From the NCBI GenBank assembly GCA_965218865.1, contig CBDCME010000073.1, forward strand, positions 289,158-353,157: a stretch of DNA of 64,000 bases. Reading direction: 5' to 3'. Positions 9,540-64,000 of the stretch are shown here, one piece after another (position 1 is the stretch's first letter; each line of letters begins with the position of its first letter). The translations under genes and the position numbers were made by a program. The notes under the pieces are model-generated. The model saw nothing but the letters and a program-made list of their open reading frames with translations. It was not told where the DNA came from and made no database searches. The DNA is from Alphaproteobacteria bacterium. Lineage in GTDB: Bacteria; Pseudomonadota; Alphaproteobacteria; JAAXGF01.

Positions 9540-10662
9540 TTAATGGCTTCGCGTCACCGGACGACGTATTGCGGTCCGGTGCCTTGCCCGCGCGGCGCGG
9601 ACCTCCTCCAGGCGTTCCCAAGCGATCCGATTGGCCATCGCGTTCGTCGCCATGGCTTGCTCGTCGGCACGGCCGAATAAATTCAGCAGTCGGTCGTGGA
9701 GCCGAGCCACGTGGGCCAGGGCGACGACTGAATCGAAGTGCGCGCCACGGTACGCGATTTCATAGGAAACGTAGATCAGGCCGCCGGCGTTGATTACGTA
9801 ATCCGGAGCATAAAGGATTCCCCGCGCCAGCAAGGCGCCGCCATGGTGGGTTTCGGCCAGTTGATTATTGGCCGACCCGGCGACGATCGTTGCCTTGAGG
9901 CGCGGAACCGTGTCGTCGTTCAGGACAGCGCCCAAGGCGCAAGGCGCCAGGACGTCCGCCTCGACGTCGTAGATTTCTTCCGCCGCGACGGCCGTGGCGC
10001 CGTGGCGTTCTCGAACCGCGCGAACCGCGTCCGCGTCGATATCCGTAACGGTGAGCCGCGCCCCGTCCTTGGCGAGATGCTCGCACAGCTTGGCGCCGAC
10101 TTGGCCCAGTCCTTGTACCGCGATCACGATTCCGTCGAGTCTCTCGCGCCCGAGCCGGTTGCCTGATGGCGGCTCTGATGCCGTGATAGACCCCCCACGC
10201 CGTCGCCGGAGAAGGATCTCCGCCGCCCTCGCCGATACCCGCGACATGGGGCGTTTCCTGGCGGACGACATCCATGTCGGCGACACCCATGCCGACGTCC
10301 TCGGCGATGATGTAACGGCCCTGTAGGGAATCGACGAATCTGCCGAAGCGCCGGAGCAGGGCCTCGCTCTTGTCGCTTCGGGAATCACCGATAACGACCG
10401 ATTTGCCGCCACCAAGGTGGAGCCCCGCCATCGCGGCCTTGTAGGTCATACCGCGCGACAGCCTCAGAACATCGTCCAGGGCCTCCTCGTCGCTCCCATA
10501 CGGCCACATGCGGCAACCACCGAGCGCCGGCCCCAGGGTCGTATCGTGAATCGCGACGATGGCTTTCAGCCCGACCCGGGCATCGTGAAAAAACACGGCC
10601 TCGTCGTGGTGCGCGAAGCTCTTGGCGTAATAGACGACCATGGCGGGATACGGGGTAATCAC
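9540..10662 (-). pseudogene. Glu/Leu/Phe/Val dehydrogenase (leucine-dehydrogenase-like), single frameshift near 10155-10165
   Basis: The N-terminal half (frame of 9865..10662) carries the catalytic GGGK motif ([11 protein letters not shown]). The C-terminal Rossmann half ([13 protein letters not shown] ... PDYVINAGG) lies in the frame of 9540..10415. The junction falls after [11 protein letters not shown]. Confidence 0.7.
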
Positions 10663-10686
10663 GGCGGATGCGCACCGCCCCGCGGA

Positions 10687-13170: not shown

Positions 13171-13178
13171 CCCGCGGA

Positions 13179-40744: not shown

Positions 40745-40882
40745 CAGTCTGTTCGAAAACTCGCGGCCCTGGCCCTCTCCCCCTCCCGGCCACCCCTATC
40801 AGCATACTCTCGTGGGTGGCCGGGAGGGGGAGAGGGCCGGAACAGACGCAAAATATGCGCGGACGCGCATTTTCGAACAGAC
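40745..40882. repeat. MITE/REP-like palindromic element, copy 2
   Basis: Same CAGTCTGTTCGAAAA terminal repeats and GGCCACCC.../...GGGTGGCC core as copy 1. Confidence 0.65.
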
Positions 40883-41633: not shown

Positions 41634-41765
41634 GTCTGTTCGAAAATGCGCGTCCGCGCATTTTTTGCGTCCGTTCCGGCCCCCACCCGGCCACCCACGA
41701 GAGGTTGCTGATAGGGGTGGCCGGGAGGGGGCGGGGGCCGGCGCCGCGAGTTTTCGAACAGACTG
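41634..41765. repeat. MITE/REP-like palindromic element, copy 3 (inverted relative to copy 2)
   Basis: Begins 3 bp after the PCD-gene stop codon. Confidence 0.65.
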
Positions 41766-47212: not shown

Positions 47213-48565
47213 ATGGCTTTGGGCGGTTCGGTCTCCTGCGCTTGGTCAAGGACAACGGCAGGAACAAGAAGACTAAGGCTAGGCGCGAGCGCGATAGCTC
47301 ACTACGAATTCCTTCTCCGATGGACCAGGGACAGGGACTGGACGGAACCGTGCGAACGGCCCGTCGTCTTCCTGCCGGTCGGCAAGACGGCCGAACTACG
47401 GGGCTTGACCGAAGGCCGGGTCCGGCAACTCGAATACGAACTCAACGAGGCCGGGCTGCTCACCTGGACCGACAGGGGCGACTACCGCAGGGGCGGAAAG
47501 CGGGATGCCGATGGGCTCATCCTCTTCGCCCACGGCGTGGACCTCTCTCCTGGGGTTGCAATGTTTCCCGAGTTGTTGAAGACCGACGCCAGGCGGCGGA
47601 AGGAAATTGAGGAACGAACCAAACTGCGGACGCACATAACAAAGCTCAAGGGCTCCGTCAGGCCCCTGCTCGACCGCGCCATCGAGGACGGACTGATAGA
47701 ACCCGGTAAGGCCGAATGGCGGAACACCACCGGAATGCTTTCCACCCGGACGGACGGCAACACGCCGCCGAAGCGGCTTAAAGAGACCGCCGCAAAATTG
47801 GACCGGCTGAGGGCAAGGCTGAGCGGGCGCGTCGAGGCAAACGCCCACTCCATAAAAGCCCTGGGCGGCGGTTGTGGAAAAGCCCGGAAAGCCTGTGGGC
47901 GGACGCGAAAAACTATCGGCGCGTCGATAGAAAACTATCGACCCACAAATACTACAAGGAATCAACAAACCGATAAATCGGTTACTAGTACCCCGTGCTG
48001 TGGACAAAGTACCGCCTGGGGCGGAAATACGGACGCGCCTTCCGGCGCGAAGTCATCCATTGAAACGATCGACGGCAGGGAAAAAGGGGGTCGCGGCCTG
48101 GAGGCCAGGAAAGAGCCTCCGAAGGGAGATCACGACGCCAACGCCGAAAGAGGGCGGGTATGGCGCCAGGCGGGAACGGTCGTGGACGGCCTGGCCGGAA
48201 ACCCGCGGGCGAAAGGCGGCGGGACAGCCAATGGTCCGGACTCGTCTCCCGGCCGCCCTCCAAAGGGCCAATTGTGGAAGCCGGACACGGGAACCCGGCA
48301 CATCAGCCTGCTTAATGCCGTGGAAATCGCCGGGATGCGGCTCCGAAACCGCATCCCGCGAACCGAACAGACGGATTGGGATGCCATCGAGGACGCCGCG
48401 GAAGACCTGTGCCCCGAACTCGGCATCAGCCTGCGGGCGTGGTGGATGGCCGTGACCATTATGGGGCGCAGGGCGGCCGCGGTCTGCGTCATGATCATCG
48501 ACCGGAAAATGTGCCCGATGCGGAAGACCCGGTGCGCTGTCCCGGCGCCTACCTGCGCGGCATGA
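47213..48565 (+). CDS. repC: RepC-like replication initiator protein
   Basis: N-terminal region VVFLPVGKTAELRGLTEGRVRQLEYELNEAGLLTWTDRGDYRRGGKRD and C-terminal LRAWWMAVTIMGRRAAAVCVMIIDRK resemble RepC N- and C-terminal domains (memory). A possible N-terminal extension lies in another frame (47128..), suggesting a frameshift. Confidence 0.5.
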   Translation: MALGGSVSCAWSRTTAGTRRLRLGASAIAHYEFLLRWTRDRDWTEPCERPVVFLPVGKTAELRGLTEGRVRQLEYELNEAGLLTWTDRGDYRRGGKRDADGLILFAHGVDLSPGVAMFPELLKTDARRRKEIEERTKLRTHITKLKGSVRPLLDRAIEDGLIEPGKAEWRNTTGMLSTRTDGNTPPKRLKETAAKLDRLRARLSGRVEANAHSIKALGGGCGKARKACGRTRKTIGASIENYRPTNTTRNQQTDKSVTSTPCCGQSTAWGGNTDAPSGAKSSIETIDGREKGGRGLEARKEPPKGDHDANAERGRVWRQAGTVVDGLAGNPRAKGGGTANGPDSSPGRPPKGQLWKPDTGTRHISLLNAVEIAGMRLRNRIPRTEQTDWDAIEDAAEDLCPELGISLRAWWMAVTIMGRRAAAVCVMIIDRKMCPMRKTRCAVPAPTCAA

Positions 48566-48694: not shown

Positions 48695-50212
48695 TTATCG
48701 TTTCTCGGCCTTCCGGGCGGGCGGGGCGGTGATCTCGGGATAGACCGCGGTCATCACCCGCCACAAATCCGGCCATCCCCCGGGCTTGAGGCGGATACGG
48801 ACCGTGGACCCGTACATCCTGTCCGCTATGGGCGTCAGCGTTATTTTCTCGACCACCAGGCGCAGGGCATCCCTCAGGTATCCCGCCCGCGCCTGTTCGA
48901 GCAGATCCAGCTTCATCCGGTCAAGGGCGCGCCCGAGGGCGAGCCGAACCTCCCTTTCCGACGCCGGAAGCCCGGGAACGGTCTTTATCGCATTCTTCGC
49001 CGCCGTCAATCCCTTCTCTAGCTCCGCCATCCGCTGAAAGACACGTTCGGTCAGCAGTCCCCTTTCGGCCACCTTCAGGAGTTTCTCGATGCCACGGTTC
49101 TTCTCGGCGATCTCCTTCTCCAACGCGGCACGCCGCTCCCGGGCCCCCTCGACGAGAGCGTTCACGCCGGCGAAAAGACCGCGCTGCCGGGACAGGGATT
49201 TCCGCAGGGCCGGGAACAGCGCCCGCACCAGCTCCGGCACCCGCTTGCCGCGCGTGTTGTTGCACGTCCTGGTATAGCGCGCGTCGGCGCAGACGTACTG
49301 CCCCAGATTGGCCAGATGCGCCATGCCGCCGCAGCGCCCGCAACGAACCAGGCCGGTCAAAGGCTGGACGTTGTGGGGATTCCACTCGTGCCAGGCGCGT
49401 TTCTTCGATGCCGGACGCGGCTCCGCCTTCGGCTTGGACTCCCCGCCTGCTTGCGGCCCCCGCTGGCTCAACATGGTCCGCGCGCGATTCCACAGCCTCT
49501 CATTCACGATCCGCAGATGGGGAACCGGCGTGCGGATCCATTCCGATTCAGGATTGATCTTTGGCCGAGACCTTTTCGTCACCGGGTCGGTCACCCGCCG
49601 CGTGCGGTTGTAGACAAGGACGCCCTTGTAAATCTCGTTGCGCAGGGTGCCATCGCCGTTGGACCCCTTCCCATAGATGCTGGCGAACCGCCAAACCGCC
49701 CCGGAAGGCGAGGGGAGGCCGTCGGCGTTCAAGTCCCTGGCTATCGTCTTAATGGGCTTTCCGGCAACGAACTCCTTGAAAATCCGCCGCACCACCACCG
49801 CCTGGGCCTCGTCGATCTCCCGCAGGCCGTTAACGTTCCGGTTCTTCCCGTCGACCACCCCGCGTATCACCCGGTATCCGTAGGCGCGGCCCGAGGCGCG
49901 GCCCGAGGGCTGGCGCCCTTCCTCCGCGCGGGCGCGCTGGCCGCGCCTGATTTTGTCTTTCATGTCGTCAAGATAAATTGCGTTCATCGTCCCCTTGAAG
50001 CCGACGTGAAGCCAGGTGATCCTTCCTTCGTGGGCGGTGTGCATGCCCACCTCATAATACACCAGCCGGGCGTAGATCGCGGCGACGTCCTCCAGACTCC
50101 GGGTAACCCGGTCCAGCCCCTCGGCGACGACGACATCGAACTCCTTCCGTTCCGCGGCCTCCAGCAGCGCCTTCAGACCCTGGCGCCTGTCGGTCGCGCC
50201 GGTGAGTTCATG
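48695..50212 (-). pseudogene. large serine recombinase, C-terminal part (gene split by tandem IS66-like insertion)
   Basis: Recombinase domain, zinc ribbon (CGRCGG ... C) and coiled coil. Reading upstream to the IS junction gives the catalytic-domain sequence ELTGATDRRQGLKALLEAAERKEFDVVVAEGLDRVTRSLEDVAAIYARL. Confidence 0.7.
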
Positions 50213-50272
50213 GGTAATTGTTCGTTCAGGCCGTGGAATCAGCGCGGGCGTTTCTATCCGCCCCGGCGGATT

Positions 50273-51154
50273 TTAGCGATTGAGGCTGCGTTTCCAGTCT
50301 CGTCGCAGGGGCCGGAGCCAGACATCCTTTTTCGGCTTGTCAAACTGCCTGTCCCGGTCGTAGCGCCCGCGCCCCTGGGTGGCGCCGACATGGATCCAGC
50401 CCGATGCCCTGTAGACCGCGCCGGTATATCGCGGGGTCTCGACGAATGTCTCGATGAGCACGGGCGTGGTGTTGTAGCGCTCGGTCCAGTCGTCGGGCAG
50501 GCGCCGGCGGATGATGGCGAGGATGTGCGAGCCCAGGTTGGGGATCTTGATCCAGGGCAGGATCAGGAACCTCGGGTTGTCGACCACGAAGGGAAGGTTC
50601 TTCTCGCGCAGTTGCCGTGTCCATCCGATGAAGGTGTCGCGCGTGGCAAGCTTCCACGCGGCGGTGGAGAAGCCGAGCATGGCGAGTGGCCAGCCGTTTC
50701 GGTCATGGACGGCATAGCGCATCTGGGCGCCGACCAGGGTCTTGTATCCGAGATAGTGGTAGCGGGCGACGAACTCGTTCCAGAGCTTCCCTTCCCGGGT
50801 GCCGCGCACGACGGGGTGCAGGTCGAGCGGACGGACCTCGTCGAGGGTCGTCGGGGCCGGGAACAGCGGCGGTTCGGTGTCCGGCCCGAAGACGATCGGC
50901 CCGGGCCGGTTCTGCCGTCCCCGCGGCGCCGGCAGGGCGATCAGGCCGTCCCTGTGCATGGCCAGCATAGCGACCCTGGCCATCATGTCCTTGAGGCCGC
51001 CGTCGGGCTTGAACCAGCCGATGCGCCGGCAGAACTCCTTCGACAGCATATGGCGGTTCAACGGCGGCGGCCCGGCGATCAGCGCGCGCAGCAGCGCCAT
51101 TTCCCCGGCGGTGAAATCGCGGCCGTAATAACGGCACTCGATCTTGCCGGTCAT
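50273..51154 (-). CDS. standalone DUF4338 (DruA-like) protein, translationally coupled to tnpC
   Basis: Start MTGKIECRYYG overlaps the tnpC stop as ATGA. Motifs FIGW, DNPRFLILPW, ETFVE, YRASGW. Confidence 0.7.
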   Translation of the reverse strand: MTGKIECRYYGRDFTAGEMALLRALIAGPPPLNRHMLSKEFCRRIGWFKPDGGLKDMMARVAMLAMHRDGLIALPAPRGRQNRPGPIVFGPDTEPPLFPAPTTLDEVRPLDLHPVVRGTREGKLWNEFVARYHYLGYKTLVGAQMRYAVHDRNGWPLAMLGFSTAAWKLATRDTFIGWTRQLREKNLPFVVDNPRFLILPWIKIPNLGSHILAIIRRRLPDDWTERYNTTPVLIETFVETPRYTGAVYRASGWIHVGATQGRGRYDRDRQFDKPKKDVWLRPLRRDWKRSLNR

Positions 51155-53820
51155 CCCGGCGCCATGAGCTCGCGCCTGCGGTCCTCGCTCATCGACCATG
51201 GCAGCCACGGCGACATGTCATCCGGCGGTTTGCGGCCGTTCTTCGCGCAGGCTTCGAGCCACGCTTCCAGCCAGCGCAGGACGTCGATGCCGTTCATCGA
51301 GAGCGTGCCCACCACCGAGTACATGATCGCCGTGAACCTGGCGCCGTCCTCGCTGTTCGAACCGAAGCTTAATCGTCGTCCGATGACTGGCCCCCGGAGC
51401 GCGCGCTCGGCCTTGTTGTTGTCCATCGGAACCTGTGGCTTGTCGACGAAGACGCACAACCCCTCGCGGTGGTTGAGAAGCGAGCGCAGCGGCTTGGCCC
51501 TGCGCGCCCTCTCCGACAGGCCGGCCAACTCCGCTTCGGCGTCCGCGAACAGGCGGGCGACCGCCGCTTCCAACTCGCCCTGCGCCGCGTCGAACGCCGG
51601 TGTCCGGCGTTCGAGACCGGGGTCGTAATGCTCCAGCCGCGCCTCGTTCAGCCGGTAGATCTCCGCGATCCGCTCGATCCATCCCTGGCACCAGCCCGTC
51701 AGTCTCACCTGGCCGGCCGCGCACTCGATAAAATCGCGGCGCATATGGGACCAGCAGAATGCAAGGGTCACCTTGCCCTCGCGAAGGCGAGCGAGTCGCT
51801 TGTAGGCGCTATAGCGGTCGCAGACGATGACCGTGTCGAGGAGGCCTTCGGCGAACAGCTCGAGCGCCGCCTCGGCGCTGCGCGAGGGGTCGATATGGAA
51901 AGAGACCGCGTCATTGCTGACCGAGGTCCACAGCCAGGCCCGGCTCGACCGGTCTTCCCCGCGAAGCTCCTGGACGCGCCAACCGGTCTCGTCGGCGTGG
52001 CGCAGCGCCGCCTTGTTCTGGTGCGCGAGGATCGCCTTGGCGACCGGCTCGAACAGCGGCACGAAACGCTTCAGGCTGTCGGCCAGCGTCCCCGGTGAGA
52101 CCCCCAGGCCCTGGCTGGAGAACCACGCGGCAACCCGGTGCAGGGGGCGCAAGCAGGCACAGTGCTCGAACAGGAAGCGTGCCCAGAAGCTGGTCCCGTA
52201 GAGCGTCCTGGGGAACAGCCGCAGCACCGGGGGCGACGACACTTCCATGGGCGACGACGCGCACTCGCAGGTCCGGCGCCAGCGCGGACGGCGGATCACA
52301 CGCTTGTGGGCCTTGACCTCGATCTCGACGAGGGTGGATTCCTCGGCGCCGTTCGGCGCATAGGGCTGCCCGCACCGTCCGCAGACGCACGCATCCGGCG
52401 GCGGGTTGTGCTCTTCGGTGCGCTCCTTGAGCCCGGGCCGCTGGGTGCGGCCATGGCCGGGCGCGCCGCGCTGCTGGCCGCGCTTGCGTTCCGAGCCCGG
52501 CTTGTCCTGCTGTTCGCTCTTGCGGCCGTAGAGCGCCCTCGACAGCACAGCTCCGGTCGCGCGAAGCCTCTCAAGCTGGACTTCCAGCGTCTCGATCCGG
52601 TTCCGCGACGTCTTCGCGCCCTTGCGCAGCCGGGCGTTCTCCCGGGACAGCGACTTGATCGTGGCCTTCTGGCGCCGCGACCTTCGCAGAGCCCTGCGGA
52701 GATCGGCGTCTGCAACGGACAGCGACTTCGACAACGTCTTCCTGACCGCTCGAAGCCCGGCAAGCTCGGACTCGAGTGCCTTCCTGATCGCGCGAAGCTT
52801 GGCAGGCTGAACCTCCAGCGCCGCTTTCCGGGTCTCCAACTTCCGCATGGTCCTGCGCAGACGGGCGTTGTCCTTGCGCAGCGCCTCGATCGTCGTCTTC
52901 TGGCGCCGCGCTCGCCGCAACGCCGCGCGCAATTGAGCGGCCTCGTCGGACGGCAGCTTCGACAGCGTCGCCCCGGCCGCCCGGAGCTTGACGAGCCGGG
53001 CCTTCAACTTCTCCTGCCCGGCCTTGAACACCTCCAGGGCATGGCGCAGCCAGAAGACCTCGTCGGACAGCGATCGGGCCCGGGCCTCGCTGTCGCCCAG
53101 TATCCTCACCTCCCGATGGAGCCGAAGGGACTCGCTGGACAGCTTCCTGGCGGCCTCCCTGATGCTCTCCGTGCTCTCCTTCTCCCGGTCGAGGCGCTTG
53201 TTCAACTGGAGGATCTGCTTGTCCCGCCGGACCGCCTCGTTGTTGAGCCGGGTGATCTCCTTGCGTAGCGTCCTGATGGTGTCCTTCTGGTCCGGGGATC
53301 GCTCCAGGGCGGTGAGCCGCCGACGGGTCTCCGCGGGCCGCGGGCCGATCGCGCCCTCTCGGGCCTCCGGCGCGACCAGGGCCTTGCGCAGCCGGGCGTT
53401 CTCCTTGCGCAGCGCCTCGGTCGTGCTGCTCTCGTTCGACCCGATGCCGGCTTCGGAGAGGAGCGTCTCCAGGCGCGCCACTTCGGCCTGCAAGGAAGGC
53501 ACGTCCCTTGCCGCGCGGCGAGCTTCCTTCGTCTCCTCGACGGCCTCGCTCAACCTGCGCCGGCAGGCCTTGAACCGCGACTTCCACGAGCCGGCATCGC
53601 TACGCGAGGCCACTTCCGCCCAGCGTAGCTCTTCCGCGCGCGCTTCGGCCGCGTCCGCGCGGGCGCGCTCCCGCTCATACAGCGAGCGCAAGTCGCGCGG
53701 CGCGCGCTCCGGTAAGGACACCGGGCACGACCGGACCCCGCCATTACCCTCGACCAGCGTCAGGTCGGTGCCAAAATCCTCGTCCAGAACCGCCATGCGC
53801 TCGACGATAGCGCACGGCAA
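51151..53820 (-). CDS. tnpC: IS66-family transposase TnpC with extended N-terminal coiled coil
   Basis: 889 aa. Zinc-finger CxxC (ACVCGRCGQP) and the IS66 DDE core (HADETGWRV ... CDRYSAYK ... CWSHMRRDF). The N-terminal ~450 aa form a coiled coil with repeated (T/A)I(K/E)xLxxENARLR motifs. Confidence 0.8.
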   Translation of the reverse strand: MPCAIVERMAVLDEDFGTDLTLVEGNGGVRSCPVSLPERAPRDLRSLYERERARADAAEARAEELRWAEVASRSDAGSWKSRFKACRRRLSEAVEETKEARRAARDVPSLQAEVARLETLLSEAGIGSNESSTTEALRKENARLRKALVAPEAREGAIGPRPAETRRRLTALERSPDQKDTIRTLRKEITRLNNEAVRRDKQILQLNKRLDREKESTESIREAARKLSSESLRLHREVRILGDSEARARSLSDEVFWLRHALEVFKAGQEKLKARLVKLRAAGATLSKLPSDEAAQLRAALRRARRQKTTIEALRKDNARLRRTMRKLETRKAALEVQPAKLRAIRKALESELAGLRAVRKTLSKSLSVADADLRRALRRSRRQKATIKSLSRENARLRKGAKTSRNRIETLEVQLERLRATGAVLSRALYGRKSEQQDKPGSERKRGQQRGAPGHGRTQRPGLKERTEEHNPPPDACVCGRCGQPYAPNGAEESTLVEIEVKAHKRVIRRPRWRRTCECASSPMEVSSPPVLRLFPRTLYGTSFWARFLFEHCACLRPLHRVAAWFSSQGLGVSPGTLADSLKRFVPLFEPVAKAILAHQNKAALRHADETGWRVQELRGEDRSSRAWLWTSVSNDAVSFHIDPSRSAEAALELFAEGLLDTVIVCDRYSAYKRLARLREGKVTLAFCWSHMRRDFIECAAGQVRLTGWCQGWIERIAEIYRLNEARLEHYDPGLERRTPAFDAAQGELEAAVARLFADAEAELAGLSERARRAKPLRSLLNHREGLCVFVDKPQVPMDNNKAERALRGPVIGRRLSFGSNSEDGARFTAIMYSVVGTLSMNGIDVLRWLEAWLEACAKNGRKPPDDMSPWLPWSMSEDRRRELMAPG

Positions 53821-53984
53821 ATTCCGTTACCAGCAGAAAGACAGCACCTCGTGGGCTTCGCCTCAACTTGGGAAATGCGCTTGACGGCACCCATTCCACG
53901 GCCTGAACGAACACTTACCGCGCGTGTAATTGTTCGTTCAGGCCGTGGAATCAGCGCGGGCGTTTCTATCCGCCCCGGCGGATT

Positions 53985-54866
53985 TTAGCGATTGAGGCTG
54001 CGTTTCCAGTCTCGTCGCAGGGGCCGGAGCCAGACATCCTTTTTCGGCTTGTCAAACTGCCTGTCCCGGTCGTAGCGCCCGCGCCCCTGGGTGGCGCCGA
54101 CATGGATCCAGCCCGATGCCCTGTAGACCGCGCCGGTATATCGCGGGGTCTCGACGAATGTCTCGATGAGCACGGGCGTGGTGTTGTAGCGCTCGGTCCA
54201 GTCGTCGGGCAGGCGCCGGCGGATGATGGCGAGGATGTGCGAGCCCAGGTTGGGGATCTTGATCCAGGGCAGGATCAGGAACCTCGGGTTGTCGACCACG
54301 AAGGGAAGGTTCTTCTCGCGCAGTTGCCGTGTCCATCCGATGAAGGTGTCGCGCGTGGCAAGCTTCCACGCGGCGGTGGAGAAGCCGAGCATGGCGAGTG
54401 GCCAGCCGTTTCGGTCATGGACGGCATAGCGCATCTGGGCGCCGACCAGGGTCTTGTATCCGAGATAGTGGTAGCGGGCGACGAACTCGTTCCAGAGCTT
54501 CCCTTCCCGGGTGCCGCGCACGACGGGGTGCAGGTCGAGCGGACGGACCTCGTCGAGGGTCGTCGGGGCCGGGAACAGCGGCGGTTCGGTGTCCGGCCCG
54601 AAGACGATCGGCCCGGGCCGGTTCTGCCGTCCCCGCGGCGCCGGCAGGGCGATCAGGCCGTCCCTGTGCATGGCCAGCATAGCGACCCTGGCCATCATGT
54701 CCTTGAGGCCGCCGTCGGGCTTGAACCAGCCGATGCGCCGGCAGAACTCCTTCGACAGCATATGGCGGTTCAACGGCGGCGGCCCGGCGATCAGCGCGCG
54801 CAGCAGCGCCATTTCCCCGGCGGTGAAATCGCGGCCGTAATAACGGCACTCGATCTTGCCGGTCAT
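53985..54866 (-). CDS. standalone DUF4338 (DruA-like) protein (copy 2)
   Basis: Identical to the 50273..51154 product. Confidence 0.7.
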   Translation of the reverse strand: MTGKIECRYYGRDFTAGEMALLRALIAGPPPLNRHMLSKEFCRRIGWFKPDGGLKDMMARVAMLAMHRDGLIALPAPRGRQNRPGPIVFGPDTEPPLFPAPTTLDEVRPLDLHPVVRGTREGKLWNEFVARYHYLGYKTLVGAQMRYAVHDRNGWPLAMLGFSTAAWKLATRDTFIGWTRQLREKNLPFVVDNPRFLILPWIKIPNLGSHILAIIRRRLPDDWTERYNTTPVLIETFVETPRYTGAVYRASGWIHVGATQGRGRYDRDRQFDKPKKDVWLRPLRRDWKRSLNR

Positions 54867-57532
54867 CCCGGCGCCATGAGCTCGCGCCTGCGGTCCTCGC
54901 TCATCGACCATGGCAGCCACGGCGACATGTCATCCGGCGGTTTGCGGCCGTTCTTCGCGCAGGCTTCGAGCCACGCTTCCAGCCAGCGCAGGACGTCGAT
55001 GCCGTTCATCGAGAGCGTGCCCACCACCGAGTACATGATCGCCGTGAACCTGGCGCCGTCCTCGCTGTTCGAACCGAAGCTTAATCGTCGTCCGATGACT
55101 GGCCCCCGGAGCGCGCGCTCGGCCTTGTTGTTGTCCATCGGAACCTGTGGCTTGTCGACGAAGACGCACAACCCCTCGCGGTGGTTGAGAAGCGAGCGCA
55201 GCGGCTTGGCCCTGCGCGCCCTCTCCGACAGGCCGGCCAACTCCGCTTCGGCGTCCGCGAACAGGCGGGCGACCGCCGCTTCCAACTCGCCCTGCGCCGC
55301 GTCGAACGCCGGTGTCCGGCGTTCGAGACCGGGGTCGTAATGCTCCAGCCGCGCCTCGTTCAGCCGGTAGATCTCCGCGATCCGCTCGATCCATCCCTGG
55401 CACCAGCCCGTCAGTCTCACCTGGCCGGCCGCGCACTCGATAAAATCGCGGCGCATATGGGACCAGCAGAATGCAAGGGTCACCTTGCCCTCGCGAAGGC
55501 GAGCGAGTCGCTTGTAGGCGCTATAGCGGTCGCAGACGATGACCGTGTCGAGGAGGCCTTCGGCGAACAGCTCGAGCGCCGCCTCGGCGCTGCGCGAGGG
55601 GTCGATATGGAAAGAGACCGCGTCATTGCTGACCGAGGTCCACAGCCAGGCCCGGCTCGACCGGTCTTCCCCGCGAAGCTCCTGGACGCGCCAACCGGTC
55701 TCGTCGGCGTGGCGCAGCGCCGCCTTGTTCTGGTGCGCGAGGATCGCCTTGGCGACCGGCTCGAACAGCGGCACGAAACGCTTCAGGCTGTCGGCCAGCG
55801 TCCCCGGTGAGACCCCCAGGCCCTGGCTGGAGAACCACGCGGCAACCCGGTGCAGGGGGCGCAAGCAGGCACAGTGCTCGAACAGGAAGCGTGCCCAGAA
55901 GCTGGTCCCGTAGAGCGTCCTGGGGAACAGCCGCAGCACCGGGGGCGACGACACTTCCATGGGCGACGACGCGCACTCGCAGGTCCGGCGCCAGCGCGGA
56001 CGGCGGATCACACGCTTGTGGGCCTTGACCTCGATCTCGACGAGGGTGGATTCCTCGGCGCCGTTCGGCGCATAGGGCTGCCCGCACCGTCCGCAGACGC
56101 ACGCATCCGGCGGCGGGTTGTGCTCTTCGGTGCGCTCCTTGAGCCCGGGCCGCTGGGTGCGGCCATGGCCGGGCGCGCCGCGCTGCTGGCCGCGCTTGCG
56201 TTCCGAGCCCGGCTTGTCCTGCTGTTCGCTCTTGCGGCCGTAGAGCGCCCTCGACAGCACAGCTCCGGTCGCGCGAAGCCTCTCAAGCTGGACTTCCAGC
56301 GTCTCGATCCGGTTCCGCGACGTCTTCGCGCCCTTGCGCAGCCGGGCGTTCTCCCGGGACAGCGACTTGATCGTGGCCTTCTGGCGCCGCGACCTTCGCA
56401 GAGCCCTGCGGAGATCGGCGTCTGCAACGGACAGCGACTTCGACAACGTCTTCCTGACCGCTCGAAGCCCGGCAAGCTCGGACTCGAGTGCCTTCCTGAT
56501 CGCGCGAAGCTTGGCAGGCTGAACCTCCAGCGCCGCTTTCCGGGTCTCCAACTTCCGCATGGTCCTGCGCAGACGGGCGTTGTCCTTGCGCAGCGCCTCG
56601 ATCGTCGTCTTCTGGCGCCGCGCTCGCCGCAACGCCGCGCGCAATTGAGCGGCCTCGTCGGACGGCAGCTTCGACAGCGTCGCCCCGGCCGCCCGGAGCT
56701 TGACGAGCCGGGCCTTCAACTTCTCCTGCCCGGCCTTGAACACCTCCAGGGCATGGCGCAGCCAGAAGACCTCGTCGGACAGCGATCGGGCCCGGGCCTC
56801 GCTGTCGCCCAGTATCCTCACCTCCCGATGGAGCCGAAGGGACTCGCTGGACAGCTTCCTGGCGGCCTCCCTGATGCTCTCCGTGCTCTCCTTCTCCCGG
56901 TCGAGGCGCTTGTTCAACTGGAGGATCTGCTTGTCCCGCCGGACCGCCTCGTTGTTGAGCCGGGTGATCTCCTTGCGTAGCGTCCTGATGGTGTCCTTCT
57001 GGTCCGGGGATCGCTCCAGGGCGGTGAGCCGCCGACGGGTCTCCGCGGGCCGCGGGCCGATCGCGCCCTCTCGGGCCTCCGGCGCGACCAGGGCCTTGCG
57101 CAGCCGGGCGTTCTCCTTGCGCAGCGCCTCGGTCGTGCTGCTCTCGTTCGACCCGATGCCGGCTTCGGAGAGGAGCGTCTCCAGGCGCGCCACTTCGGCC
57201 TGCAAGGAAGGCACGTCCCTTGCCGCGCGGCGAGCTTCCTTCGTCTCCTCGACGGCCTCGCTCAACCTGCGCCGGCAGGCCTTGAACCGCGACTTCCACG
57301 AGCCGGCATCGCTACGCGAGGCCACTTCCGCCCAGCGTAGCTCTTCCGCGCGCGCTTCGGCCGCGTCCGCGCGGGCGCGCTCCCGCTCATACAGCGAGCG
57401 CAAGTCGCGCGGCGCGCGCTCCGGTAAGGACACCGGGCACGACCGGACCCCGCCATTACCCTCGACCAGCGTCAGGTCGGTGCCAAAATCCTCGTCCAGA
57501 ACCGCCATGCGCTCGACGATAGCGCACGGCAA
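54863..57532 (-). CDS. tnpC: IS66-family transposase TnpC (copy 2)
   Basis: Identical to the 51151..53820 product. Confidence 0.8.
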   Translation of the reverse strand: MPCAIVERMAVLDEDFGTDLTLVEGNGGVRSCPVSLPERAPRDLRSLYERERARADAAEARAEELRWAEVASRSDAGSWKSRFKACRRRLSEAVEETKEARRAARDVPSLQAEVARLETLLSEAGIGSNESSTTEALRKENARLRKALVAPEAREGAIGPRPAETRRRLTALERSPDQKDTIRTLRKEITRLNNEAVRRDKQILQLNKRLDREKESTESIREAARKLSSESLRLHREVRILGDSEARARSLSDEVFWLRHALEVFKAGQEKLKARLVKLRAAGATLSKLPSDEAAQLRAALRRARRQKTTIEALRKDNARLRRTMRKLETRKAALEVQPAKLRAIRKALESELAGLRAVRKTLSKSLSVADADLRRALRRSRRQKATIKSLSRENARLRKGAKTSRNRIETLEVQLERLRATGAVLSRALYGRKSEQQDKPGSERKRGQQRGAPGHGRTQRPGLKERTEEHNPPPDACVCGRCGQPYAPNGAEESTLVEIEVKAHKRVIRRPRWRRTCECASSPMEVSSPPVLRLFPRTLYGTSFWARFLFEHCACLRPLHRVAAWFSSQGLGVSPGTLADSLKRFVPLFEPVAKAILAHQNKAALRHADETGWRVQELRGEDRSSRAWLWTSVSNDAVSFHIDPSRSAEAALELFAEGLLDTVIVCDRYSAYKRLARLREGKVTLAFCWSHMRRDFIECAAGQVRLTGWCQGWIERIAEIYRLNEARLEHYDPGLERRTPAFDAAQGELEAAVARLFADAEAELAGLSERARRAKPLRSLLNHREGLCVFVDKPQVPMDNNKAERALRGPVIGRRLSFGSNSEDGARFTAIMYSVVGTLSMNGIDVLRWLEAWLEACAKNGRKPPDDMSPWLPWSMSEDRRRELMAPG

Positions 57533-57630
57533 ATTCCGTTACCAGCAGAAAGACAGCACCTCGTGGGCTTCGCCTCAACTTGGGAAATGCGCTTGACGGC
57601 ACCCATTCCACGGCCTGAACGAACACTTAC

Positions 57631-57787
57631 GTTCATGGTCCGAAAACACAGCCGCTTCGCCGCCAGGGACACAGAACTCCCGCTCGATCAGCCTTCGGCA
57701 CAGCGCGACCTGATCGGCGACGCTCAGCGGATTCTGAATTTTCGACGAATAGCGGGCGTAGATTGCCGCTTTCGGCTTCGCTTTCAT
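57631..57787 (-). pseudogene. large serine recombinase, N-terminal fragment (catalytic Ser region)
   Basis: MKAKPKAAIYARYSSKIQNPLSVADQVALCRRLIEREFCVPGGEAAVFSDHE, then the IS66 TIR. It continues in frame with the 48695..50212 fragment across the insertion. Confidence 0.7.
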
Positions 57788-58429: not shown

Positions 58430-61134
58430 TCAGCGCCCGAGGCCGCTTTCGGCGGCACGCGACGGCGCCAGGCGGGACAGCCCGGCCAGTTGCCGCCTGA
58501 TCTCCGGGCGCCGGGCCGCCTCGCGCCACATCTCGCCGAAGGTTGTTTTGCCTTCTTTCGCCGGAGGTGGAACGATCACCTTGCCGTTCACCGCCTTGGC
58601 GGCTTCCCTAGCGTCGGACCGCCCCCTCGCCGCCGCGGCGTTATCGGTGGCGACAACGATTCCGGCCTTCGGATGTTTGAGGCGCCACGCCTCGGCGACC
58701 GCCTTGAGGTTGTCCGCACCGAAGGCGCAAAGCGTCCGCCGGCCCGTGGCCTCGTGGATGGCGGCGGCGGACGCCAGGTCCTTGGCGATAACGGCGTCGC
58801 CCTTGCCGCCGGGTTTCTCCTTGCCGATCCCGAACATCAGGCCCTCGGGGCTTCCGGAGGCCCAGGCGCTCGGCGGTCTCGCCATTATCGTCCAGGGCGC
58901 ACAAGCCCCAGACGCGCCCGCTTGCATCGGTCAACGGAACCAGGACATGCTTGTCCCGGCGCAGGTTCTCCACGGGAAGGCCGGGCGGCAGCCCTTGCGG
59001 CGTACCGTCCTTGCCGAGGGGCTCGGCGTTTCGCCAGCGCAGCCACACGGCGTCCCCCGGCGGGACGGGCCAGCACATCGCGGATTTTGTCGGGATCGCC
59101 CGCCCTTTCCGCGAACGACGCGGCGCCTTCGGGAACGGCGAGGGTGGCGCGCGTTTCCCCGGCCGATTCCTTCAGGGATCCGGCCCGTTCCTTGTCCGCC
59201 GCGATGACCAGCTTGCCGTCCGGATAGCGTTCCCGCAGCGCCCGCGCGAGGTCTCCCATCTTGTCCGCCTCTTCCGCCACCGCCCACGGGCAGCCTCGTG
59301 GCCTTGTGGATCGCCGCGCCCGAGAGATAGTCGCCGGCGACGACGATCGCGTCCTTGCCGGCCCGCCGCCCCGGATCGATCACGTGCATCAGCGCCCAGA
59401 CCCACGCCGCCGTCCTGGCCTGAACCCTGCCGGCGCGGCGCGTCCCGCCGTCCCTGGCGATGAACTTGACATCATGGAGCCGGCCGTGGACGTCCTTGAG
59501 CGGCATGGCCACGCCGCCGTCCGGCGCCAGCTTGAGGCCGAATCCTCGGACCCGGTTCTCCATCAGCCAGGGCGTGTTGCCGGGGGTGGTCCCACGGCGC
59601 GCCCTTGAGTTCCGTCCACGCCATTTGCGCCTTGTCGCCCACCAGAGGCGCGAGCCTTGCCCGCAAATCCGCGGGCTTCACCGTCCCGGTCCGATCGTCG
59701 TTCCATTCCTTCACTTCCAGGGCCTCGACGCCGACCGCCCTGGCCCGCTCGGCGAAAGCCGCCGCCCCGGCGGCCGCGATCTTACAATCCGCATGTTTGG
59801 CGCGCAGGCAGGCGGCCGCGGCCTTGAGGTCTCCGCCCTTAGGCACCAACGCCACAGGCGCGTGCGCGGCGTTGCGAACGGCGGCGGCGGCGGCGATATT
59901 ATCGGTTAGCACCACGGCCGGGGGCTTCCCGCCCGCTTCGATTCTCCGCTCCGGGTCGATGACGTGCAGCAATCCCTTCTTGCCGAGGTTTCCGATCTCC
60001 GTCGTCTTTCCGTCCGGCTTGAGAACCTGCAAGCCCCCATACGTGGCCGTCCTTGCCGCGGAACGGAACCATCAGGTTGCCGCTTCCGTCCTCCCTCAAT
60101 CCCAGACTCCGCGCCCCGCCCTTTTCCTTGACCCACGGCCCGGCCGTTCCATCCGCCCACTTGCCCGCGTCGATCCAGTGCCTCAGTGCCGGACGCAGGG
60201 TCCGGGGCAGCCGGTCCCGGCCACCATCGCCGAAGGCCCGGAACATCTTCTTGTAGGTCATGATGACGACCAGGGCCAAGGGATCGCGGTAGGCCTCGTT
60301 GATGAGAAACTGCTTCCAGTCCGCCGCTATTCTCCCGGCCAGCGTTTTCGGACGCCTTCTCCGTCCAGTGAAGGTCCGCCACAGGCGCGAAGCCCCGGGG
60401 TGCCGGGTCAGGGGCTTTGCGCTGTAGCGCCGGCGCGGCTTGGACGCGCTCGCCTTGTCCATGGATTCGTAAGGGCCCAAGCGCTCTTTCAGCTTGCTGA
60501 ACGTGAGGTCCGGGCCCGCGAGGCTCGCCTTGACCACCTCCGGGCCGTCCCGCCGTTTCAACGCCAGGCCGGCGCCGCGCCGTTTGATCTCGATATCGAA
60601 GGCGGCGAGCCCCTGGTGCAACTCGCGCCAGGTGCGCGCCTTCCCGGCGATCCCGAGAATCTCTTTCCTGTTGTCGAGAACGTGGTTCTGAAACGATTGG
60701 CGCCAGGTCCGCGCCTCGAAGTCCCGCGCCGCCGGGTGCGCAACGGCGCGGCCCTTGCCGTCCCGGTTGTCGTAGTCGGACCCGCCGAGATCGACGTGAA
60801 GCCCGTACTTTCTCTCCATCGCCCGGCACGTCCTCTCCAGCGCCTTGTAGTCGTTCCACGGCGTGTGGACCGTCAGCTTCCCGGGATGGACCCTGTTGAT
60901 GGCCACGTGCATGTGAAAGTTGTCGGTGTTTTCGTGCGTCCCCGCCACCCGCTGGTGCTCGCCGAAGCCCAGGGCCTCGGCGATGGCCAGGTCCAGGTCC
61001 ACCTCGTCCCCGCCGGCGCAATTGACCGTCCACAGGTCCACCAGCTTCTCGCCCTTTTCCTTGGCCGCCGCGATGTATCCGGACAAGCACCCGAATTTTC
61101 CCTTCACCGTCCGGCCGATCTTCTTGGCGATCAT
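58430..61134 (-). pseudogene. traI: MOBP-family relaxase (RP4 TraI-like); N-terminal relaxase domain intact, C-terminal region broken over at least 4 frames
   Basis: N-terminal part 59899..61134 shows MIAK ... YI ... VNC ... GFGEHQRV ... HENTDNFHMHVAINRVHP (3-His motif). Downstream, repeated about 90-aa modules appear in the ORFs 59472..60032, 58931..59563, 58885..59280 and 58430..58927, each in a different frame. Confidence 0.7.
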
Positions 61135-61391
61135 CCGCGCCCGGAGATTTTCACGATGCAGGCCCCGATCAATTTTTGGGTCTCGCGGATTCCCTCGTAC
61201 AGCTTCCTCGTCTCTCCGATAAACGCGGACGAGACGCGGCTCGCGCCCAAGGCGTCCAGCACCGCCAGGAGGAGATTACCGAGCCGGGCCTGATCGGCGT
61301 TGACCTTCATCAAATCGCGCCGCGCCGACGCCTCGATCCGGCTCGCAGGGATTCCGCGGCCCACCACGAGGCGGCGGACGTATTCCGACAC
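61131..61391 (-). CDS. mobC: MobC-like relaxosome accessory protein
   Basis: 86 aa. Motif DLMKVNADQARLGNLLLAVLDAL resembles the MobC family. Stop/start overlap with the relaxase gene. Confidence 0.55.
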   Translation of the reverse strand: MSEYVRRLVVGRGIPASRIEASARRDLMKVNADQARLGNLLLAVLDALGASRVSSAFIGETRKLYEGIRETQKLIGACIVKISGRG

Positions 61392-61654
61392 GGGACAATC
61401 CCAAACGGGAGGCGGCGGCGCAAATCCCGGCCTTTTCCTCCGCGCTTACGTAAGCCTTCAAGAAAATCTGCTGGCGGCGCTTCTTCCTCGCCACCGCTAT
61501 CCGCTTTCCGGCTTGGCCCGGCTCGCCGGCTGGATGATTGAACCCGCCGGGCGCGGCCTCGTCCCCGGCGTCCACGGTTGCCGCTTCACCGCCGTCCATT
61601 CCATGTCTCATCTTTCCCTGCCTCCACCCCTTTTTCCTCTGCCGTGATCCCTAT

Positions 61655-61712
61655 GACGGCTTGCGACCGCAAGCCGTCACACCCTTGATTTTACCCCGTT
61701 TCCGGTATCCGG
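61655..61712. promoter_or_regulatory. candidate oriT (12-bp inverted repeat TGACGGCTTGCG..CGCAAGCCGTCA followed by nic-like GGTATCCGGCG)
   Basis: Strong inverted repeat about 270 bp upstream of mobC. The nearby TATCCGG is one mismatch from the MOBP nic core ATCCTG. Confidence 0.3.
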
Positions 61713-61850
61713 CGCCAGTTCCGGCACATGATCCGGACGGTGCGCCGGGAAGAGGGTGGAGTCGGGCCGGGAGGGTCCGATCACGGGAGGGTCGGAGAGG
61801 ACGTTCGTCCGCCCTTCCGGTGCCGAAACCCCTTCCTGGAGAATTGGACC

Positions 61851-62102
61851 ATGGCCCGCACCAACATCACGTCCGAGCACAAGCGCGCCTTCGAGGCGTT
61901 GACGAGCCGGGAACCCCATAACTTCGCCCTCTTCAGTTGCCGAGTCGATAACGAACCCGCCGCGGCGATCGTTGCCGTGACCGTCGATCCCCGCGCGCGA
62001 AAGGGCGGGGAACCCGAGTACCGGATCCGGCCGATGTTCGTCTCGGTCACCCCCGGAATGCGCCTGACCGATCATGACGGCCGGGAGGCTTGTGAGCGAT
62101 GA
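61851..62102 (+). CDS. hypothetical small protein (leading-region-like position)
   Basis: 84 aa starting MARTNITSEHKRAFEAL. In frame with the downstream PAPS-reductase-like gene, but separated from it by a TGA. Confidence 0.35.
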   Translation: MARTNITSEHKRAFEALTSREPHNFALFSCRVDNEPAAAIVAVTVDPRARKGGEPEYRIRPMFVSVTPGMRLTDHDGREACER

Positions 62103-62183
62103 AACGCGATTTCCCATTCCCGCGATTCCTCCATCATCCCGCCCCCGGAGTGCATCGAAGCATTCGCGCGGGGCGCCCTTTTC

Positions 62184-62958
62184 GTGGTCAATCACTCAGG
62201 CGGCAAGGATTCCCAGACGATGACGATCGCCCTCCGACGCCTCGTCCCGCCCGATCAATTGCTGATTGTCCACGCCCCGCTCGGCGACGTCGAGTGGCCG
62301 GGAACGGTCGAGCACATCGAGAACACCATTCCACCCGGCGTGCCCCTCGTCCTCGCCCCAACCGCTTCCGCCAAGACGCTGCTGGAACGCATCGAGGAAC
62401 GCGGACGATTCCCTGATAGCGCGCGCCGCTGGTGTACCTCGGATTTCAAACGCACACCCATCGAACGAGAGATCCGGCGCTATCTCAAGGGCCATCCGCG
62501 CTATTCCGGCCGCATCGTCAACTGCCTCGGCCTGCGGGCCGAGGAAAGCCCAACCCGGGCGCGCCGTCCCGCCTGGAGTTTCAACGCCCGCAACAGCAAG
62601 GCCGGGCGCGAGTGGCACGACTGGCTGCCGATCTTTCGCATGACCCGCGGCGAGGTGTTCAAAACCATCCGCCAAGCCGGGCAAAACCCCCCATTGGGCC
62701 TACGCGGCCGGCATGACGCGGCTGTCGTGCAGCTTTTGCATCCTGGCCTCTCGTTCCGATCTCGCTACGGCCGCCCGACTCAGGCCGGCGCTCTACCGGC
62801 GCTACGCCGCACTGGAACGCCGTATCGGCCACACCCTGTCGCCGGCGCGAAACCCCCTTCCTGAAATCACGGGGATTTCCACGCCGGATCCATTCCCCAG
62901 CCTGCCTCAAATCCGCCTTCCGGCCCCGGAGAGGGAGAGTCCGGTCTTCGAGGGGTGA
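62184..62958 (+). pseudogene. phosphoadenosine-phosphosulfate reductase family protein (PP-loop SGGKDS), frameshift in a C6 run near 62685
   Basis: N-terminal frame to ...IRQAGQNPP. The C-terminal frame (62713..62958) holds the conserved Cys motif HWAYAAGMTRLSCSFCIL. The two frames join if one C is removed from AAAACCCCCCATTGG. Confidence 0.6.
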
Positions 62959-63022
62959 GGGGCCGGCGTTGGAGCGAGAGGTTCCGCCCGGGCCGATAAC
63001 CCGCGAACGAGGAGCATGAGCG

Positions 63023-63377
63023 ATGAAACTTCTGACCGACGAGCAGCGCCAACGGATGATCGACAACGGCCGCGTCAACGCCGCCCACATCGCCCGCGAC
63101 GGCAACACCCAGGACTTCACCCCGGTAGTTAAGCTGTTCTGCCCCTGGGGGACGGGCACCTGGCTGTTGTCGGAACTGAATTCCGAAGACCGCGATGTTG
63201 GATTCGGACTCTGCGATTTGGGCCATCCGGAGCTTGGCAACGTAAGCCTATCCGAAACTGGCGGCGGTGCGCGGCCCGGGCGGCCTCGGCATCGAGCGCG
63301 ACCTTCATTTCAAGGCCAGGGCGACGCTTTCCGAATACGCCGCCGAGGCGCGCGAGAGCGGCTTCATCCGCGCCTGA
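63023..63377 (+). pseudogene. DUF2958 family protein, frameshift at GAAACTGG (63253-63260)
   Basis: MKLLTDEQRQRMIDNGR ... VVKLFCPWGTGTWLLSELNSEDRDVGFGLCDLGHPELGNVSLSE in frame 2. It continues as LAAVRGPGGLGIERDLHFKARATLSEYAAEARESGFIRA* in frame 0. Confidence 0.55.
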
Positions 63378-63443
63378 CCGCGCGAACCCCCATTCCACAC
63401 CGGGGCCGCCCAGACGGAGGTCCCGCAACCTTGGAGACCTGCG

Positions 63444-64000
63444 ATGTCCGAATCCGAGATTCGTTCCATTCCCCTGAGCCAATTGGAACTCTCCCCCGCC
63501 AACGTGCGCACGGCCCCGGCGGGCAAGGCGGCCGACGCCGAGCTGAAGGCCTCGATCGCCGCCCACGGGCTTCTGGAGAACCTGGTCGCCCGCTGTTTCG
63601 GCCCGGGTCCGGACGGTGTTGGCCGCTACGCCGTGATCGCCGGTGGCAGGCGCCTGGCCGCCTTGCGGGACCTCGCCCGCGACGGCGCGATCGGCGAGGA
63701 CTTCCCCGTGCCCTGCCGCATCACCGGCAACGCCGCCGAGGAGAAGGAGCTGTCCCTGGCCGAGAACACCGTGCGGGTGGCCATGCATCCGGCCGACCAG
63801 GTCCGAGCCTTCGCCGCCCTGGCCGACGCCGGTTCCGGAACCGCCGACATCGCCACGAGATTCGGCGTCTCCGAGCGCACCGTCGCGCAGCGCCTGCGCC
63901 TCGGCAACGCCGCGCCGGAGATTCTCGACGCCTACCGGGACGGCGGCATCGGCATGGACGTGCTGACGGCGTTTGCCCTGACCGCCGACAGGGAGCGCCA
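63444..64000 (+). CDS. ParB/Srx-like nuclease domain protein (partial, continues beyond window)
   Basis: MSESEIRSIPLSQLELSPANVRT ... YAVIAGGRRLAALRDL ... LAENTVRVAMHPADQVRAF are typical ParB N-terminal domain motifs. No stop codon before the window end. Confidence 0.65.
   Translation, partial: MSESEIRSIPLSQLELSPANVRTAPAGKAADAELKASIAAHGLLENLVARCFGPGPDGVGRYAVIAGGRRLAALRDLARDGAIGEDFPVPCRITGNAAEEKELSLAENTVRVAMHPADQVRAFAALADAGSGTADIATRFGVSERTVAQRLRLGNAAPEILDAYRDGGIGMDVLTAFALTADRER

Follow-up and report, generated by a model that had tools for sequence, protein, structure and literature searches.

When the genes beside a presumed transfer origin read as broken, are the genes dead or is the sequence wrong? 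The question is raised by positions 61851–64000 of a 64,000-nucleotide window (the whole stretch of DNA analyzed here) of contig CBDCME010000073.1 in assembly GCA_965218865.1. There, a small open reading frame (ORF) for an 83-aa protein is followed by a gene for a PP-loop enzyme resembling 3′-phosphoadenosine-5′-phosphosulfate (PAPS) reductase, by a DUF2958 gene, and by a ParB-like gene that the window end cuts. A preliminary description of this DNA had recognized two homopolymer frameshifts, one in the PAPS-like gene and one in the DUF2958 gene. Both breaks exist in the sequence as assembled; they belong to a set of ten single extra bases spread over 58.4–63.3 kb. From the comparison of sequences, the genes are very probably intact in nature, and the frameshifts would be single-base over-calls in a poorly polished patch of approximately 5 kb of the assembly.

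Ten extra bases in the transfer gene region

The ten extra bases lie in short runs, mostly as GG extended to GGG, and are distributed over the relaxase gene (five), the TraJ-like gene (one), intergenic DNA (one), the PAPS-like gene (two), and the DUF2958 gene (one; Table 1). Four of them are defined by L003, a 1,928-nt Logan contig from run ERR13605531 that was retrieved by an exact look-up of the 83-aa protein. L003 matches positions 61121–63052 of the window at 99.7% identity, the differences being two substitutions and four single bases, each of these four extra in the window. On L003 the TraJ-like gene is intact, with 159 codons, and the PAPS-like frame reads without interruption from an ATG overlapping the stop codon of the small ORF. 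A further protein, P0370, is 100% identical to the TraJ-like product on either side of the frameshift. The relaxase gene, which lies in about six ORF pieces in the window owing to its five extra bases, has an intact 904-aa counterpart in another assembly, P0368; over 886 aa, the pieces depart from it by one substitution and the five +1 shifts and are otherwise 100% identical.

The break that had been described in the DUF2958 gene at ~63256 was borne out. The frame changes at GAAACTGG, exactly between profile positions 73 and 74, and the two halves match contiguous parts of PF11171, positions 1–73 (84 bits) and 74–110 (37 bits). L004, a related element that carries DUF2958 together with a full-length ParB-like gene, reads CCG-AACTGG where the window reads CCGAAACTGG. 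Joined without one A, the halves yield a protein 100% identical to P0121, a PF11171 protein present on five other contigs.

The PAPS-like gene was said to be split in a C6 run at ~62685. A frame break is found there, but the C6 run (62687–62692) is identical in L003, and the extra base is an A in the adjoining A4 run. Independent assemblies read A3C6 at this site and AA at the DUF2958 site, which speaks against the earlier view of the two frameshifts as true lesions. Had they been sequencing errors, the preliminary description expected C5 and AA; AA was seen, together with A3 rather than C5, close to that expectation.

The second extra base of the PAPS-like gene accounts for another oddity. 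In the sequence as given, the 83-aa ORF and the PAPS-like sequence share one frame, and a GTG at 62184 is the sole in-frame start of the latter, just as had been noted. The true ATG at 62099 is hidden because of the extra C in the CCC run at 62113–62115, and it is restored once that base is removed; the in-frame arrangement with a GTG-only start is therefore a by-product of the extra C. Two other routes to a start codon were discarded. A frameshift in the C5 run at 62143–62147, leading to the same ATG, was rejected in favor of the CCC run since homologues align with the frame-0 reading ‘IIPPPEC’, and an ATC at 62133, considered as a mutated start codon, became needless once the CCC run explained the ATG.

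The lesions were not reproduced elsewhere. The five sites aligned at the nucleotide level and the five relaxase sites, judged at the protein level, all lack the extra base in independent assemblies. The frameshifted products are known from the source contig only. Exact-pattern scans of Joint Genome Institute (JGI) metagenome contigs, spanning both originally noted frameshift sites, returned no matches.

Over-called bases or genuine decay

We regard the frameshifts as probable artefacts since the genes are intact in other assemblies of the same DNA, and the pattern of differences along the window is consistent with this assignment. Eleven indels separate the window from independent data, and in each case the window has the additional base; ten fall in the patch and one in the glutamate dehydrogenase gene (gdh). 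As a control, ~29 kb of the chromosomal part of the window was aligned to an independent 31-kb European Nucleotide Archive (ENA) contig at 24x coverage (L005/L007), yielding 10 substitutions and zero indels, and 5.4 kb was aligned to a further Logan contig (L006), yielding five substitutions and one indel. The concentration of indels within 58.4–63.3 kb is significant (Fisher p = 1e-5), as is the ratio of indels to substitutions, which is 4:2 in the patch vs 1:15 in the chromosome (p = 0.009). Of the 131 conserved columns of its family, the corrected PAPS-like protein deviates at 7; its relatives deviate at 0–10.

Local polishing failures do occur in such data, as follows from L005, another assembly of this organism, in which a 2.5-kb copy of an insertion sequence (IS) contains an unpolished stretch with 47 gaps. 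L004, when compared with window positions 58628–64000, is ~99% identical in the DUF2958 and ParB-like genes and only 74% identical in the relaxase, and it is without the small ORF and the PAPS-like gene, the TraJ-like gene (483 nt) being directly followed by DUF2958. L003, for its part, ends at both module junctions, 61121 and 63052. This module-wise identity and these end points lead us to conclude that the metagenome holds mosaic variants of the element, a setting in which, we infer, consensus polishing can fail.

Several observations weigh against over-calling. The call is based on assembled sequences rather than reads, and a strain-specific decayed copy is possible. The patch is sharply local and the neighboring IS genes are intact, so that an ad hoc explanation, for instance low coverage or a mixture of variants, is needed. 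The runs that were hit are short (2–4 nt) and longer ones (C5 and C6) are untouched, which is atypical of classical homopolymer error. Lastly, the extra base in gdh is common to a second long-read assembly and is thus real or systematic. That gene is broken at TT 10159–10160; L006 has a single T there and an intact 396-aa gene, and L005 shares the TT. The extra T could mark either a real pseudogene or a systematic error.

Genuine decay, which we regard as unlikely, would make the region the remnant of a dead element in which true +1 slippage had disabled the relaxase, traJ-like, PAPS-like, and DUF2958 genes, the intact copies elsewhere representing the living element. The surroundings fit such a history: the region is embedded among IS copies, the neighboring serine recombinase is without its N-terminus, and the same relaxase is cut by an IS in another assembly (P0367). 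The lesions are restricted to the element, where relaxed selection is expected, and the gdh frameshift seen in two assemblies suggests that some pseudogenes in this lineage are real. The lesions themselves do not resemble decay. They comprise ten insertions and zero deletions, most sites share the GG-to-GGG signature, and one extra base is intergenic. They are accompanied by approximately one amino-acid substitution in more than 1,000 codons and by two nucleotide substitutions in 1.9 kb; under a neutral model assuming 0.1–0.2 indels per substitution, four or more indels beside two substitutions have P < 0.001. The unpolished stretch in L005 likewise argues for a technical origin. A 43-aa stretch missing from the relaxase was also considered as a sign of decay in the window and was set aside, because the intact P0368 has the same gap; the gap is a feature of the lineage and not a defect of the window.

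Functional recoding, whether as programmed +1 frameshifting, as phase variation at the runs, or as read-through of the TGA to give a fusion of the small ORF and the PAPS-like enzyme, is highly improbable. It would draw on the location of the shifts in runs and on the small ORF and the PAPS-like frame being in frame across the TGA in the sequence as given. Yet the runs are merely 3–4 nt long, near-identical sequences elsewhere work without recoding, and the relaxase has five extra bases of the same kind and intergenic DNA one. Moreover, among 80 genome loci with a close PAPS-like homologue that were surveyed for gene arrangement (L008–L087), the stop codon of the small ORF and the start codon of the PAPS-like gene are joined in a 4-nt ATGA/GTGA overlap in 31 of the 31 loci measured. 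These separate, overlapping genes rule out the read-through fusion, and they mark the 83-aa ORF and the PAPS-like gene as what appears to be a translationally coupled pair.

Over-calling thus stands as the preferred reading, and the locus is best explained as an ordinary mobile-element gene block whose standout features are assembly artefacts. It carries a caution: what reads as a run of pseudogenes in a mobile element can stem from failed polishing of one patch of a metagenome assembly that is accurate elsewhere, and the failure here also produced the false puzzle of an in-frame upstream ORF with a GTG-only start.

Table 1 Genes, candidate signals and extra bases at the right-hand end of the window.
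Feature	Position	Strand	Basis or remark
Relaxase, RP4 TraI/MobA(P) type	58430..61134	−	Pfam Relaxase, TraI_middle, and C-terminal Toprim_3 matches on the pieces
Extra bases, relaxase gene	~60030, 59591, 59284, 59055, 58862		+1 sites from a frameshift walk against P0368
TraJ/NikA-like (MobC-type) relaxosome accessory gene	61131..61611	−	Intact 159 aa in L003; PF21983, NikA-like
Extra base, TraJ-like gene	61392–61394		GGG in window, GG in L003
Perfect 12-bp inverted repeat, 2-nt loop	61654..61679		TGACGGCTTGCG-AC-CGCAAGCCGTCA in the divergent intergenic region; candidate hairpin of the origin of transfer
Extra base, intergenic	61754..61756		GGG in window, GG in L003 (alignment)
Conserved 83-aa ORF	61851..62102	+	129 homologues; TGA overlaps the next ATG
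PAPS-reductase-like PP-loop enzyme, 285 aa corrected	62099..62958	+	PF01507; open frame in L003
Extra base, PAPS-like gene	62113–62115		CCC in window, CC in L003
Extra base, PAPS-like gene	62683–62686		AAAA in window, AAA in L003
DUF2958, 117 aa corrected	63023..63377	+	Start ATG at 63023; PF11171 in two halves; corrected protein equals P0121
Extra base, DUF2958 gene	63255–63257		AAA in window, AA in L004
ParB-like, HerB/YfjB type, N-terminal 185 aa; gene cut by window end	63444..64000	+	Start ATG at 63444; weak Pfam matches to ParB_N and helix-turn-helix

The PP-loop enzyme, its small partner and the ParB-like protein

The identification of a PAPS-reductase-like enzyme with SGGKDS and CSFC motifs is borne out. 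SGGKDS can be read directly at 62199–62216, SCSFC is likewise present, and the N-terminal fragment scores 28.5 bits with the Pfam family PAPS_reduct, whose cut-off is 22.5. A family search at E ≤ 1e-10 yielded 2755 homologues, the best of them 75% identical, all intact and 250–300 aa long. SGGKDS is invariant in a 14-sequence alignment and nearly so among 42 homologues, with the lysine conserved in at least 90%, and three cysteines, C112, C210, and C213 in the corrected numbering, are invariant. The C-terminal tail is variable in the family and of low model confidence; the TGA stop codon at 62956 reads CGA in L003, where the ORF continues to the contig end.

Profile comparisons place the protein near the phage family phrog_424 (E = 6.6e-40), BrxP (E = 3e-17), and SspD (E = 1e-9), with a weak match to DndC. 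No NCBIfam model was reached, and a search of PDB sequences with the PAPS-like profile returned nothing at E ≤ 0.01. The AlphaFold model of P0003, a 69%-identical homologue (predicted local distance difference test (pLDDT) score of 91), matches the CysH/adenosine 5′-phosphosulfate (APS) reductase structure (E = 3.6e-6, probability 1.0) as well as TtuA and LarE. Two specific assignments were rejected. An assimilatory PAPS/APS reductase of the CysH type is contradicted by the lack of an ECG(L/I)H motif, in place of which an invariant C-terminal RLSCSFCI is found, and by the mobile-element context. As for DndC, the protein scores 16.7 bits against TIGR03183, for which the cut-off is 290.4, and the PADLOC DndC model matches residues 105–156 only; no dndA, dndD, or dndE partner occurs among the conserved neighbors of the survey loci. 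With DndC, SspD, BrxP, and phrog_424 the enzyme shares a PP-loop SGGxDS motif, the PAPS_reduct fold, and conserved cysteines. It differs from BrxP in length (285 aa vs 779 aa), from DndC systems in that their cysteine desulfurase and DndD/E-type partners were not seen in the gene set here, and from DndC, SspD, and BrxP alike in having an unrelated 83-aa protein as its partner. The Fe-S-binding cysteines of APS reductase, TtuA, and DndC follow a pattern similar to that of the three invariant cysteines.

The 83-aa protein itself has no match in Pfam, NCBIfam, PHROG, or PADLOC, and its AlphaFold model (pLDDT 70) found no PDB match at E ≤ 0.001 in Foldseek. Its gene lies directly 5′ of the PAPS-like gene in 32 of the 80 survey loci. 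The small protein and the PP-loop enzyme form a tightly coupled, widespread, multi-copy, and so far unstudied pair. DUF2958, the next gene downstream, is named by just two papers of the literature searched. The PAPS-like gene and DUF2958 have their start codons within identical 13-mers, TGAGCGATGAAAC (62093–62105 and 63017–63029, respectively), each copy preceded by a GGAGG-like site; L004 is without the 13-mer at DUF2958. A sigma-70 promoter scan of 61500–64000 detected no sites.

The ParB-like assignment of the last gene holds by way of a relative, not by the fragment in the window alone. The fragment, in which a CTP-binding ParB N-domain with GGRRLAAL and ENTVR motifs precedes a helix-turn-helix (HTH), scores 22.1 bits against ParB_N, below the Pfam threshold of 26.3, and gives a weak HTH match. 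The call is secured by the full-length 752-aa relative on L004, which carries ParB_N (PF02195) and matches phrog_7783 at E = 8e-79. By BLASTP, this relative aligns with the 652-aa leading-region ParB-family protein of pO157, which sits between ssb and psiB (E = 1e-45, 29% identity over ~600 aa). GGRRLAAL aligns with box II and SLAENTVR with box III of HerB, and both segments are present in the window fragment. The alignment of the L004 relative spans HerB residues 30–591, covering all of domain D3 and ~74% of D4, where the HerB preprint takes at least 80% of each of the two domains for membership (PMC13370423).

On these alignments, the ParB-like protein is predicted to be a homologue of HerB (YfjB/ParB2) of the F plasmid. 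HerB/YfjB is a CTP-binding, HTH-bearing clamp that reprograms host transcription after transfer and occurs on conjugative elements belonging to many MOB types (PMC13370423). The proteins have in common a large ParB-like build with a CTP-binding N-domain, an HTH, and a long extra C-terminal part; they differ in that the relative here has 752 aa and that the gene follows DUF2958 and the PAPS-like gene instead of lying beside ssb and psiB, and is directed away from the transfer origin. The homology to the F and pO157 proteins agrees with the establishment-type, mobile-element character that had been proposed for the block, and the locus adds one more HerB-type ParB example in a relaxase-proximal position.

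Candidate transfer origin, distribution and neighboring repeats

All ORFs of 61851–64000 lie on the forward strand, diverging from the TraJ/NikA-like gene and the relaxase on the reverse strand. The genes are thus co-oriented and lead away from the putative origin of transfer (oriT), as had been described; relative to the RP4-type traJ-traI pair, they occupy the place of the traK-L-M leader operon of pTX1. With the traI-traJ, oriT, and traK-L-M region of RP4 and pTX1 the locus shares the divergent layout, a TraI/MobA(P)-type relaxase with TraI_middle, a TraJ/NikA-like protein, and an intergenic inverted repeat. Unlike in those plasmids, the position of traK-L-M is taken by the small ORF and the PAPS-like, DUF2958, and ParB-like genes, and the relaxase has Toprim-like C-terminal repeats and is without a 43-aa stretch at ~60972 (residues 54/55). 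This stretch, which is present in L004 and in the TraI of pTX1, includes the conserved DKTYHLLxSFRPGE region (MOBP motif II). In a comparison of the relaxase with pTX1 TraI, the first 254 aa alone align, and the TraJ-like product matches NCBIfam TraJ PRK13877 at E = 1.2e-12, under the cut-off.

The 12-bp hairpin in the divergent intergenic region is the best candidate for oriT. It is followed on the forward strand by an 8-mer, TATCCGGC at 61706–61713, that differs from the MOBP nick core at one position, and ~0.7 matches of this quality are expected by chance in the region; the exact nick core YATCCTGY is absent from the region.

The arrangement survey bears on a further part of the preliminary description, in which ParB-like and PAPS-reductase-like genes were held to form recurring pairs near oriT. 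The pairing is found: a ParB-like gene lies downstream on the same strand in 55 of the 80 loci. Proximity to transfer genes of the kind seen here is not: tblastn and phmmer searches, which addressed homologues of the window type, found a relaxase or TraJ-like/MobC gene within 8 kb in 0 of 80. A GHKL-type ATPase (48/80) and an AAA_34 helicase (29/80) are common neighbors. DUF2958 occurs with the PAPS-like gene in six loci only.

The closest PAPS-like homologues in the survey come nearly all from uncultured metagenome-assembled genomes (MAGs) of Alphaproteobacteria, Candidatus Binatia, Thermodesulfobacteriota, Defluviicoccus, and Thalassobaculaceae, some of which point to sponge bins. Several MAG genomes hold three to five copies, up to five of them on one contig (e.g., CBDDOM010000002.1 and OZ220712.1), and close relatives are plasmid-borne in Rhodobacterales and Rhizobiales. 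Plasmid unnamed2 of Sagittula sp. P11 and pPABY8 of Salipiger abyssi carry homologues of the PAPS-like gene (67% nucleotide identity), the 83-aa ORF (63% amino-acid identity), and DUF2958, set among ArdC-like, DUF736, DUF6878, RadC, and toxin-antitoxin genes. Gene order and content differ from those in the window: on pPABY8 the small ORF follows DUF2958 and there is no PAPS-like gene, and on the Sagittula plasmid the PAPS-like gene is without a small-ORF homologue directly upstream. Because of the multiple copies in MAGs and the plasmid homologues, we take these to be mobile-element genes and not, as the preliminary description had allowed for, conserved chromosomal ones.

That they are ordinary conserved chromosomal genes, for instance for sulfate assimilation (cysH) and chromosome partition (parB), is exceedingly unlikely: the Pfam names PAPS_reduct and ParB_N and the chromosomal nature of the contig, with ftsH, glmM, purB, and ruvABC, would suit that explanation, but against it stand the plasmid-borne relatives and the copy number in MAGs, the lack of any NCBIfam equivalog match, the absence of a ParA-type domain from all genes predicted next to the ParB-like gene of L004, the neighboring relaxase and TraJ-like gene, and the end of the independent chromosomal contig L007 at 37684, short of the IS-rich region.

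Taken together, a model for a mobile-element gene block can be proposed. The region would be a block beside the transfer origin of an RP4-type (MOBP TraJ-TraI) conjugative or mobilizable element, situated in an IS-rich part of the chromosome and consisting of the coupled 83-aa protein and PP-loop enzyme, DUF2958, and a HerB/YfjB-type ParB-like CTP-binding clamp. By analogy to RP4 and pTX1, the block would enter the recipient first; it may be expressed early after transfer, once the complementary strand is made, and aid establishment of the element. The ParB-like protein would load on DNA as HerB does. The PP-loop enzyme and its small partner would probably carry out an adenylation-dependent modification of nucleic acid, perhaps a sulfur transfer. 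Among PAPS-reductase-like enzymes of DNA modification, a ParB-superfamily partner is frequent, an example being DndB for DndC.

The placement on the leading side is open to objection. It depends on the analogy with RP4 and pTX1, and the genes of the block point away from oriT, while F-type leading-region genes, as derived from F-plasmid biology, are directed toward oriT, which allows the entering T-strand to act as their template. Anti-defence genes have been described as lying exclusively on the T-strand, and transcription from the T-strand has been suggested (PMC11541004).

A broader and rather doubtful possibility is that the 83-aa protein and three-cysteine PP-loop enzyme, together with the HerB-like ParB, the GHKL-type ATPase, DUF2958, and the Strawberry-notch-like AAA_34 helicase, might constitute an uncharacterized nucleic-acid-modifying, anti-restriction, or establishment system of integrative elements, in which the PP-loop enzyme would mark incoming DNA with a sulfur-containing or other modification. 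Uncultured Alphaproteobacteria, Binatia, and Thermodesulfobacteriota have as many as five copies of this gene set in one genome.

The remainder of the window carries several repeats. Two exact tandem duplications are present, at 10677–15660 (period 2492 nt), with a 776-aa DruA+DDE_Tnp_1 transposase, and at 50214–57637 (period 3712 nt), with a 315-aa DruA protein and an 892-aa IS66-family transposase. L006 joins 10687 straight to 15661 without an IS, and L005 contains one copy only, which is inverted and holds the 47 gaps. Both duplications could be real IS dimers or assembly duplications. A 2.08-kb inverted repeat (38305–40385 and 44802–46884), formed by an IS with a DruA+DDE transposase, flanks a DUF772 transposase; its arms are identical save for CC vs GGCC at 39514/45674, a difference that splits the ORF in the second copy. 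The end of this IS is also what truncates the relaxase (P0367) in another assembly. A RepC-like ORF with RP-C and RP-C_C domains (47213–48565) adjoins the large serine recombinase gene (48695–50062), whose product is without the first ~40 profile positions of the Resolvase domain and which abuts the IS66 duplication. Three copies of a 96-nt repeat are present (5524–5619, 40745–40840, and 41646–41741), two of them near IS copies; the repeat contains a GC-rich hairpin and looks like a miniature inverted-repeat transposable element (MITE) or a repetitive extragenic palindromic (REP) element.

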